Origin: Candidatus Woesearchaeota archaeon
Lineage (GTDB): Archaea; Nanobdellota; Nanobdellia; Pacearchaeales; GW2011-AR1
Reading direction: 5' to 3'
Length of the DNA stretch: 45,398 bases
Assembly (NCBI GenBank): GCA_964391715.1
Contig: CAYMMZ010000001.1
Coordinates: 1-45,398, forward strand
The translations under genes and the position numbers were made by a program. This document shows positions 26,924 through 45,398 of the stretch, in pieces (position 1 is the stretch's first letter; every line of letters begins with the position of its first letter). Under the pieces are notes generated by a model that was not told the origin of the DNA, did no database searches, and saw only the letters and a program-made list of their open reading frames with translations.

Positions 26924-26998
26924 TCTAAAACATGGCCCCGAGGGGATTTTGATCACCAGATCACCTACTGGGTGAACCCTGGGTTCAAATCTAAAACA
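26924..26998 (-). other. tRNA-Lys 3' trailer module: inverted T-arm copy plus a second, interrupted copy of the tRNA 3' half carrying a 24-nt insert
   Basis: 26-nt direct repeat 26924-26949 = 26990-27015. GATTTGAACCC (minus sense) is complementary to the tRNA's own T arm. The 24-mer TGATCACCAGATCACCTACTGGGT at 26950-26973 is identical to 45318-45341. Confidence 0.7.
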
Positions 26999-27073
26999 TG
27001 GCCCCGAGGGGATTTGAACCCCCGACACCTGGATTAAAAGTCCAGTGCTCTAACCAGGCTGAGCTACGGAGCC
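26999..27073 (-). tRNA. tRNA-Lys (anticodon UUU), no encoded CCA
   Basis: Minus-strand sequence GGCTCCGTAGCTCAGCCTGGTTAGAGCACTGGACTTTTAATCCAGGTGTCGGGGGTTCAAATCCCCTCGGGGCCA folds as a cloverleaf: 7-bp acceptor stem with one G-U, D arm GCTC/GAGC, anticodon arm CTGGA-CTTTTAA-TCCAG, T arm GGGGG-TTCAAAT-CCCCT. Confidence 0.92.
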
Positions 27074-27121
27074 ATAAATTACTTCAGAAAAACCGATTTA
27101 AAAATCTATTCCTTAGGAAAA

Positions 27122-44982: not shown

Positions 44983-45291
44983 TCATTTCAGAAACCCAAA
45001 AAACTTCTGCTCAAAATCCACAACCTTACCATCCAAAACCCCAACTCCTTCTTTCTTTAAAATTTTAATCTTATTCCTAACACCTGAAGCAAAACCGCCA
45101 ATTCTTCCGCCACTACTAACAACTCTATGACAAGGAACTTGAGGAGCATAAGGATTTTTGTTCATAGCAGTCCCAACAGCACGATACGCCCGAGTCCCAA
45201 GAGCCTCCGCCAAAGCCTTATAAGTCGTCACACGACCCCGAGGAACTTTTCTCAACAAATCATAACACTTCTCGCTAAATGTTTTTTCCAT
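44983..45291 (-). CDS. ogt: methylated-DNA--protein-cysteine methyltransferase, catalytic domain only
   Basis: VPRGRVTTYKALAEALG...NKNPYAPQVPCHRVVSSGGRIGGF (PCHRV active site). At 102 aa it lacks the usual N-terminal domain. Confidence 0.9.
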   Translation of the reverse strand: MEKTFSEKCYDLLRKVPRGRVTTYKALAEALGTRAYRAVGTAMNKNPYAPQVPCHRVVSSGGRIGGFASGVRNKIKILKKEGVGVLDGKVVDFEQKFFGFLK

Positions 45292-45301
45292 TCAATATAA
45301 G

Positions 45302-45363
45302 TAGCCCTGCCAGGATTTGATCACCAGATCACCTACTGGGTCAAGCCTTGGTTCGAATCTCCA
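45302..45363 (-). other. second tRNA 3' trailer module with the same 24-nt insert as at tRNA-Lys
   Basis: 16-nt direct repeat 45302-45317 = 45364-45379 (the tRNA's 3' end). The 24-mer at 45318-45341 is identical to 26950-26973. GATTCGAACC (minus sense) is complementary to this tRNA's own T arm. Confidence 0.7.
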
Positions 45364-45398
45364 TAGCCCTGCCAGGATTCGAACCTGGGTCGCGAGGT
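45364..45398 (-). tRNA. tRNA, 3' part only (truncated by the window end); identity undetermined
   Basis: In minus sense: ...ACCTC GCGAC CCAGG-TTCGAAT-CCTGG CAGGGCT A. This shows a T arm and the 3' acceptor strand. An implied A1:U72 pair with A73 is initiator-like, but the anticodon lies outside the window. Confidence 0.7.

Follow-up and report, generated by a model that had tools for sequence, protein, structure and literature searches.

The window analysed here, meaning the whole stretch of 45,398 nucleotides at positions 1 to 45,398 of contig CAYMMZ010000001.1 in the Candidatus Woesearchaeota archaeon assembly GCA_964391715.1 (G000:C1:1-45398, with G000 denoting the source assembly), ends inside a tRNA-Gln(CUG) gene. 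Behind this tRNA lies a 62-nt module, composed of pieces of the tRNA itself and a 24-nt mobile hairpin element that we term INS_A, which separates the tRNA from an ogt-like gene. All features of the locus are on the minus strand and are given in that direction. The last 35 nt of the tRNA (positions 39-73, ...CGACCCAGGTTCGAATCCTGGCAGGGCTA) occupy 45364-45398, and the remaining 38 nt lie past a 100-N gap. A 4-nt filler, TGGA (45360-45363), leads from the tRNA discriminator to an inverted T-arm copy, GATTCGAACC (45350-45359), which is a 10-nt exact reverse complement of the T-arm sequence GGTTCGAATC at tRNA positions 52-61. Then, at 45342-45349, the T-arm 5' strand and first loop bases recur as a decayed direct copy, which reads AAGGCTTG(A) against AGGTTCGA in the tRNA; AAGGCTTG is the left flank of the insert and holds the palindrome CAAG-G-CTTG. 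INS_A, ACCCAGTAGGTGATCTGGTGATCA, occupies 45318-45341, at T-loop position 58/59 of the spare tRNA copy. The module closes with AATCCTGGCAGGGCTA (45302-45317), a 16-nt exact duplicate of the tRNA 3' end at 45364-45379 that covers the T-loop 3' bases, the T-stem 3' strand, the acceptor 3' strand and the discriminator A73. This repeat is exactly 16 nt long, as the neighbouring bases differ at both ends, and 46 nt separate its two copies. The spare copy is partial, lacking positions 1-50, and the uninterrupted tRNA stands upstream of it. The ogt-like gene (44983-45291; 102 aa, PCHRV active-site motif; PF01035, E 5e-29) has its start codon at 45291-45289, 10 nt from the module.

The 55 bases before the scaffold gap at the window end are identical to the 55 bases after it, so the two contigs overlap and the tRNA is complete once they are merged. 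On the merged contig, ARAGORN calls a 73-nt tRNA-Gln(ctg) with anticodon CUG (G000:C1:45519-45591 in gapped coordinates), and the assembly has no other Gln(CUG) gene. Of 48 congeners (genomes of the same genus), 46 have full-length homologues with 84-97% identity, and the tRNA-Gln(CUG) upstream of the module is a normal, presumably functional gene. The initial annotation, made from the truncated gene, had raised the possibility of an initiator tRNA and had proposed extending the contig to recover the full tRNA and its anticodon. The extension yielded CUG and not CAU, which dismisses that idea; the A1:U72 pair with A73 is simply a feature of this archaeal tRNA-Gln. It had also considered that the repeat might be an artefact of the contig end. 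The gap does lie within the module-tRNA region, and the contig to its right begins precisely at the 24-mer boundary, which may reflect population heterogeneity at the site. However, both contig ends are identical over the 55 nt, the left contig contains the entire module, and two further G000 loci and many independent metagenome-assembled genomes (MAGs) share the architecture, so that an assembly artefact is extremely improbable.

A sister locus at tRNA-Lys(UUU) (26924-27074, minus strand) has the same architecture and an identical 24-mer (26950-26973), and tRNA-Lys(CUU), on contig C21, is followed by a third copy of the 24-mer that has a single mismatch. The initial annotation had described the Gln module as a second independent tRNA 3'-end duplication with an identical 24-nt insert, and every element that it listed was recovered in its place. 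Its view that a chance origin is unlikely also stands: dinucleotide shuffles of the window gave no match to the 24-mer at all, never mind two. The inverted T-arm piece does vary between the loci in step with each tRNA. Rfam models found tRNA and no other family in the window. A box C/D or H/ACA guide directed against the T arm was considered and rejected by eye, since C/D boxes with the required spacing are absent.

Empty and filled versions of the Gln site are both present in congeners. In G114, G141 and G124, which share the tRNA-Gln(CUG)-ogt synteny, the distance from the tRNA to ogt is 0-7 nt, and both the module and the TGGA filler are missing; the module is also absent from the closest congener, G162, whose tRNA is 97% identical. 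Eight other congeners carry a tRNA-Gln module of the same layout with quite different inserts: a short trailer leads to the inverted T arm and a direct AGGTTCGA, and the insert is followed by CTGG and the 3' strand of the acceptor. One family of larger inserts is present in either orientation relative to the tRNA. Two modules have tails that do not match the tRNA in front of them. In G162, the module behind tRNA-Gln(UUG) bears the 3' end of tRNA-Gln(CUG), and in G000 the module downstream of the tRNA at G000:C12:15592-15710 ends in a Ser-like acceptor strand and is thus a chimera. These mismatched tails suggest recombination between modules. The C12 gene is labelled Ser(tga) with a 44-nt intron by ARAGORN; the long variable arm is absent, and it is more likely a tRNA-Ile(UAU) with a canonical 37/38 intron.

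The genes around tRNA-Gln(CUG) also differ in their spacing. The 0-7 nt between tRNA-Gln and ogt in congeners (L102, L112, L118) leave no space for a promoter; transcription of ogt probably continues from the tRNA, with 3' processing setting its message free. The ogt leader in G000 is 62 nt longer, and the added stretch has two Shine-Dalgarno-like motifs, AGGTGATC and TGGTGATC. A tRNA-splicing endonuclease gene (endA, PF01974; G000:C1:45991-46251), a short way past the window end, is the divergent neighbour of tRNA-Gln(CUG), and such a gene is directly downstream of this tRNA in several congeners.

Modules of this kind are common at the tRNA genes of G000. In its general form, a module consists of an intact target, 0-9 nt of filler, an inverted and then a direct copy of the sequence to the left of the insertion point, an insert, and a copy of the sequence to the right. 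The last 14 nt of 18 of the 35 tRNA genes recur 47-99 nt downstream (up to two mismatches), and none recur upstream. Nearly all 18 copies share one layout, with at least five insert families, several of them in tandem. Exact antisense matches of at least 8 nt to the T-arm region of the tRNA itself are found in 11 of 35 trailers, compared with none upstream and none in a reversed control. At the other gene end, 10 of the 35 tRNAs have their first 16 nt repeated at a distance of 54-145 nt upstream, and the insert falls at the D-loop position (contigs C1, C3, C4, C9, C12, C15, C18, C22 and C32). The target duplications are variable in length (16-35 nt), starting at the insertion point and stopping 0-11 nt beyond the tRNA discriminator; in the 5' modules, the duplicated stretch runs from the insertion point to upstream of the promoter, and at both tRNA-Glu genes the upstream duplication takes in the promoter. 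The same architecture is found at other tRNAs in G087 and G162. Orthologous sites differ between G000 and G162, which points to fast turnover. At tRNA-Arg(CCU), a new module lies nearest the tRNA in G162 with an INS_B module farther away, and in G000 (G000:C32:9140-9217) INS_B is nearest with an INS_A-like remnant farther away. From this order, new modules seem to be added beside the functional gene.

The exact 21-mer core of INS_A was found in 26 DPANN contigs, and one extra match, in a proteobacterial MAG, looks like chance. Within the genus, INS_A is present in 21 of 49 genomes at 1-15 copies each. No match was found in 100 other genera of the family (one genome per genus, up to three mismatches), and the element is therefore taken to be confined to the genus. 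It occupies the spare T loop of tRNA-Arg(CCU) and, in six genomes or more, that of tRNA-Lys(UUU); INS_A is also found in the loops or flanks of unrelated hairpins, and one copy is nested within a longer member of its family. The element has an invariant GTAGGT directly upstream of a GATC-TGGT-GATC stem-loop. Compensatory double changes affect three of the four stem pairs (GCTC/GAGC, GGTC/GACC, GATT/AATC and AATC/GATT), 96% of cells are paired, and the observed score was reached in none of 500 shuffles. By this pattern of sequence covariation, the INS_A hairpin is under selection.

The left flanks of INS_A approximate G(G/T)TT(Y)NA and the right flanks begin with A(A/G), giving a preferred site of the form GGTTnnA/A (an unbracketed slash in a single site marks the point of insertion). 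The tRNA T loop, GGTTCRA/AT, fits this target motif, with GGTTCGA/AT in tRNA-Gln. Of 45 distinct INS_A copies, 33% have their left flank inverted just upstream and 18% have an upstream duplicate of their right flank; the corresponding values for random positions are 7% and 3%. INS_A also occupies a protein-coding gene, that of the Bud32 kinase, in which it lies antisense and in frame and contributes eight codons (RSPDHLLG) after AKHF, and one genome has two copies in tandem. The allele of most congeners is empty, AAACACTTC/CAAAAC, and the Bud32 insertion is without target duplication. The Bud32 genes examined (L046, L055, L056, L060, L064, L087 and L093) have a second hot spot after TSNTIL, with in-frame, stop-free insertions of 13-35 codons in four congeners.

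Tandem INS_A-like arrays of approximately four units, each of 55-62 nt, were observed at L218 (G115:C2:289.6 kb), L219 (G143:C28:55.3 kb) and L059/L189. The unit is an INS_A-like hairpin followed by its right flank, the inverted left flank and the left flank. The arrays in G115 and G143 are superficially CRISPR-like, and this identity was rejected because their 55-59-nt units are 96-98% identical throughout and variable spacers are absent.

A site that involves no tRNA has the identical layout. It is a divergent promoter between two genes of the same contig, beyond the window at 66.2-66.4 kb (G000:C1:66073-66592), in which 29 nt are duplicated and an 11-nt inverted piece accompanies an INS_A-like insert, CCCTGTAGGTAACTCTGGTGAGTT. 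The order is GGTTTTTA plus the 29 nt, then TAAT, TTAAAAACCAA (an inverted copy of TTGGTTTTTAA), GTTTTTTA, the INS_A-like insert, and the same 29 nt again. In eight congeners the site is single-copy and insert-free. The architecture is therefore not specific to tRNAs. The initial annotation had proposed that covariation between the two tRNA loci offers a test of RNA function; it does not serve as one, because the copies are templated from the local target and the promoter has the same architecture. For the same reasons, the match to the T arm is better seen as a by-product of insertion than as the outcome of selection on tRNA structure.

We consider it probable that the 62 nt behind tRNA-Gln(CUG) are the scar of a healed insertion that regenerated its target. 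The 11-nt inverted piece at the Lys locus, GATTT/GAACCC, crosses the insertion point without an insert, and the Gln piece is uninterrupted where the direct copy is split. An inverted piece that spans the insertion point in this way was copied from an uninterrupted target. At the junctions, Lys has a 2-nt microhomology, where others have a filler of 3-4 nt (TGGA at Gln, TAAT at the promoter), and loops of 1-4 nt lie between the inverted and direct pieces. We infer that such an insertion could arise as follows. The target strand would be nicked at the insertion point, GGTTnnA/A, and the free 3' end would be extended by a polymerase on the complementary strand over a variable 16-35 nt, regenerating the gene end. 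The new strand would then snap back on itself to give the inverted piece, and a second snap-back would give the second direct piece, ending at the original cleavage position; only afterwards would the extended, snapped-back strand be joined to the element. In an essential single-copy tRNA gene, only events in which the regenerated stretch reaches the gene end would survive, and duplications that end 0-11 nt past the tRNA end are what is expected if selection sets a minimum length. At a tolerant site such as Bud32, the outcome could be a plain insertion of the element without duplication. The spare copy would have no part in tRNA function and would decay.

Several observations weigh against this reading. 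No enzyme was found: G000 has neither a Y1 transposase nor TnpB. Across the genus, Y1 transposases were detected in 12 of 49 congeners over the Pfam cut-off and in 14 at E <= 0.01 (all incomplete MAGs), and their presence does not track INS_A copy number; G143, the genome with most INS_A copies, is among the Y1-positive genomes, and an overall association is absent, with the incompleteness of the MAGs limiting this comparison. Inserts are not always at the duplication boundary, being in the loop of the inverted hairpin at tRNA-Gly in G087 and between the inverted and direct copies at tRNA-Met in G162. At the Gln locus the direct left copy has decayed (6/8) and the inverted piece is perfect, which is not what a simple neutral scar would lead one to expect. 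In the Gln modules of congeners, the second 3' copy has the acceptor-strand variant of its own tRNA at every locus (C, U or A at position 66; G or A at position 68), and such tracking requires gene conversion, repeated re-formation or selection. Finally, the order of events, whether as one coupled event or with duplication first, is something that we infer from the anatomy only.

This last point is where the nearest alternative departs from an insertion that rebuilds its target. Replication template switching at the T-arm palindrome could duplicate the tRNA 3' region with an inverted spacer, and mini-elements that seek hairpins could land later, and independently, in the loop of the spare T arm, the one place where they do no harm. 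As this model would have it, an uninterrupted T arm was the template for the inverted piece; lone inverted T-arm pieces are found behind some tRNAs; the second T arm is uninterrupted in the G000 Gln-UUG, G162 Met and G087 Gly modules; and INS_A occupies the loops of unrelated hairpins too. However, nearly all duplicated copies have their insert exactly at the boundary of the duplication, for at least five families and at both gene ends, the three-part architecture with its insert also occurs at the promoter, and insert-free modules are rare although two separate steps would be expected to make them commoner. We regard two unrelated steps as unlikely. A function in RNA is far less probable still. 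In this case the module would be an alternative 3' exon or a T-loop bulge-helix-bulge (BHB) intron from which the splicing endonuclease yields a mature tRNA or small RNA. The acceptor 3' strand and discriminator are the best-kept part of many second copies and track tRNA variants, the INS_A stem has G:U intermediates on the tRNA-sense strand, endA is adjacent, and both Lys loci have a weak in-register BHB-like motif. Yet the top matches of a BHB scan were the two canonical introns of the genome, and the in-register site at Gln fails, with three of four central pairs and weak outer helices; the Lys loci are marginal and include G:U pairs. The upstream tRNA requires no splicing and the insert is not in the expressed copy. 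The closest relatives manage without the module, the larger inserts sit in both orientations, the second T stem is frequently destroyed, and the promoter layout and the in-frame translation of INS_A in Bud32 fall outside such a function.

Two further explanations invoke known kinds of mobile DNA or RNA. A direct repeat from the T loop to the tRNA 3' end (16 nt, exact) is the classical attL/attR picture, and G000 has tyrosine recombinase genes (one complete and two truncated), so that the module might be the remnant of a tyrosine-integrase virus or plasmid that entered the tRNA 3' part and was then lost except for approximately 46 nt. Duplicates of the tRNA tail more than 200 nt away were found for none of the 35 tRNAs, however, and hence there is no kb-sized element between repeats; approximately half of the tRNAs are affected, 5' ends included, and the same scar occurs at a site that is not a tRNA. 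What lies between the repeats is a dispersed 24-mer, unmatched in viral contigs, and an inverted copy of the target in place of integrase-element DNA. This origin seems to us very improbable. The other explanation is a retro-mobile RNA: the inserts would be structured RNAs, resembling short interspersed nuclear elements (SINEs), that a reverse transcriptase (RT) copies into nicked targets, with inversions of the twin-priming type. Such a process would fit the long and variable target duplications, the A-rich 3' end of the element and its A/T-rich targets (GGTTTTTA/AAG), stem covariation that includes G:U on one strand, and the RT genes on contigs C9 and C19. Against it, these RTs look like ordinary RTs of diversity-generating retroelements (DGRs) with adjacent variable-protein targets, the larger insert families face either way relative to the tRNA and still have the same flank architecture, and poly-A tails are absent. 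We know of no prokaryotic precedent for a retro-mobile small RNA, and judge this origin very improbable.

The first of the two RT genes (G000:C9:22145-24989; L128) encodes a DGR-type RT of 488 aa with the motif LGNLTSQ and adjoins two paralogous target-like genes ending ...GRLVGVASETQE. The second (G000:C19:1-2488; L129) comprises two open reading frames split by a frame-breaking stretch.

Repetitive extragenic palindromic (REP) elements and palindrome-associated transposable elements (PATEs) are hairpin derivatives of IS200/IS605 elements and are moved by Y1 (HUH) transposases or by REP-associated tyrosine transposases (RAYTs). INS_A resembles them in its conserved GTAG before a short hairpin, its compensatory stem changes and its lack of a fixed short target-site duplication. 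It differs in that no Y1 gene was found in G000 and no full-length element with INS_A ends was found; in addition, IS200/IS605 transposition, unlike the events behind these modules, neither duplicates nor inverts its target. In the neighbourhood of the Y1 genes of G143, G146, G108, G155, G157 and G152, no autonomous element bounded by INS_A was seen. The sister families INS_E and INS_F resemble IS200-type ends in congeners; INS_E shares a 16-nt exact match, CGATTTGCCCGAAGGG, and INS_F has the pattern ATACCC-hairpin-TTGGG. In the same six genomes, loci L191-L205 comprise at least three IS200-type subgroups that have tnpA only and hairpin ends. Group-1 copies follow TT(T)ATT, with TTTATT or TTGATT again as the last bases of their right ends.

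Other short repeats share some of these properties. Small dispersed repeats (SDRs), reportedly described from heterocystous cyanobacteria, are like INS_A in being approximately 24 nt long, dispersed, nested, located inside genes and other repeats, and without a transposase of their own. They differ in having no reported duplication-inversion-duplication and no preference for the tRNA T loop, and INS_A is set apart from SDRs by its stem covariation and its recognisable target motif. Rickettsia palindromic elements (RPEs) are said to be a comparable case of selfish hairpin DNA in a reduced genome, in frame in essential protein genes and in RNA genes; unlike INS_A, they are 100-150 bp long and the target is not regenerated. 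With respect to miniature inverted-repeat transposable elements (MITEs), INS_A has the many dispersed near-identical copies and the empty sites in relatives, and it lacks terminal inverted repeats and a fixed short target-site duplication.

The duplicated tRNA end has parallels of its own. Integrative elements that target tRNAs (SSV-, pNOB8- and pTN3-type) likewise duplicate the tRNA 3' part from the T loop and keep a working gene. Unlike the att repeats of integrases, the module has no integrase and no element body, its duplication is made from the target and includes an inverted piece, and it also occurs at 5' ends, at non-tRNA sites and at half of all tRNAs. In the tRNA-linked repeats of Escherichia coli (the 178-bp repeats of tyrT), the last ~19 nt of the tRNA reportedly recur downstream in tandem units, as in our modules, and they are said to differ in that neither a dispersed insert family nor an inverted T-arm piece has been described. 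Transposed BHB introns and split or permuted tRNAs have reportedly been described in archaea. As with INS_A, near-identical short inserts occur at non-canonical T-loop positions of different tRNAs; unlike BHB introns, INS_A is in a dead spare copy, has no conserved BHB motif and is translated in a protein gene.

As far as could be found, the locus behind tRNA-Gln(CUG) is an ordinary member of an unusual and seemingly undescribed insertion class. Literature searches returned no description of the phenomenon, and to our knowledge transposition that rebuilds its target in this way has been described for no prokaryotic element family. More broadly, we tentatively suggest, as a possibility somewhat short of an even chance, that DPANN archaea, and perhaps bacteria of the candidate phyla radiation (CPR) too, host miniature elements whose insertion rebuilds the target, with the nicked end copied over 16-50 nt, snapping back and then joining the element.

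A 0.8-Mb genome is expected to be under strong pressure for DNA loss, yet here 18 of 35 tRNA 3' ends and 10 of 35 tRNA 5' ends have copies beside mobile hairpins. The pattern points to an active, target-regenerating insertion process, in which even the closest relatives differ in their filled sites, and pairs of filled and empty sites make the insertion mechanism directly testable. The scars break assemblies at tRNA genes, as they did here, and this bears on tRNA annotation in DPANN MAGs; spare copies with T-loop inserts could also be mistaken for introns or split genes. If true, target-rebuilding insertion would let elements colonise essential single-copy genes (at tRNA T and D loops) and promoters, and would explain the variable, long target duplications with their inverted piece. 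It could also be a route to split, permuted or intron-bearing tRNA genes, and the scars offer a concrete way to study the origin of fragmented tRNA genes.

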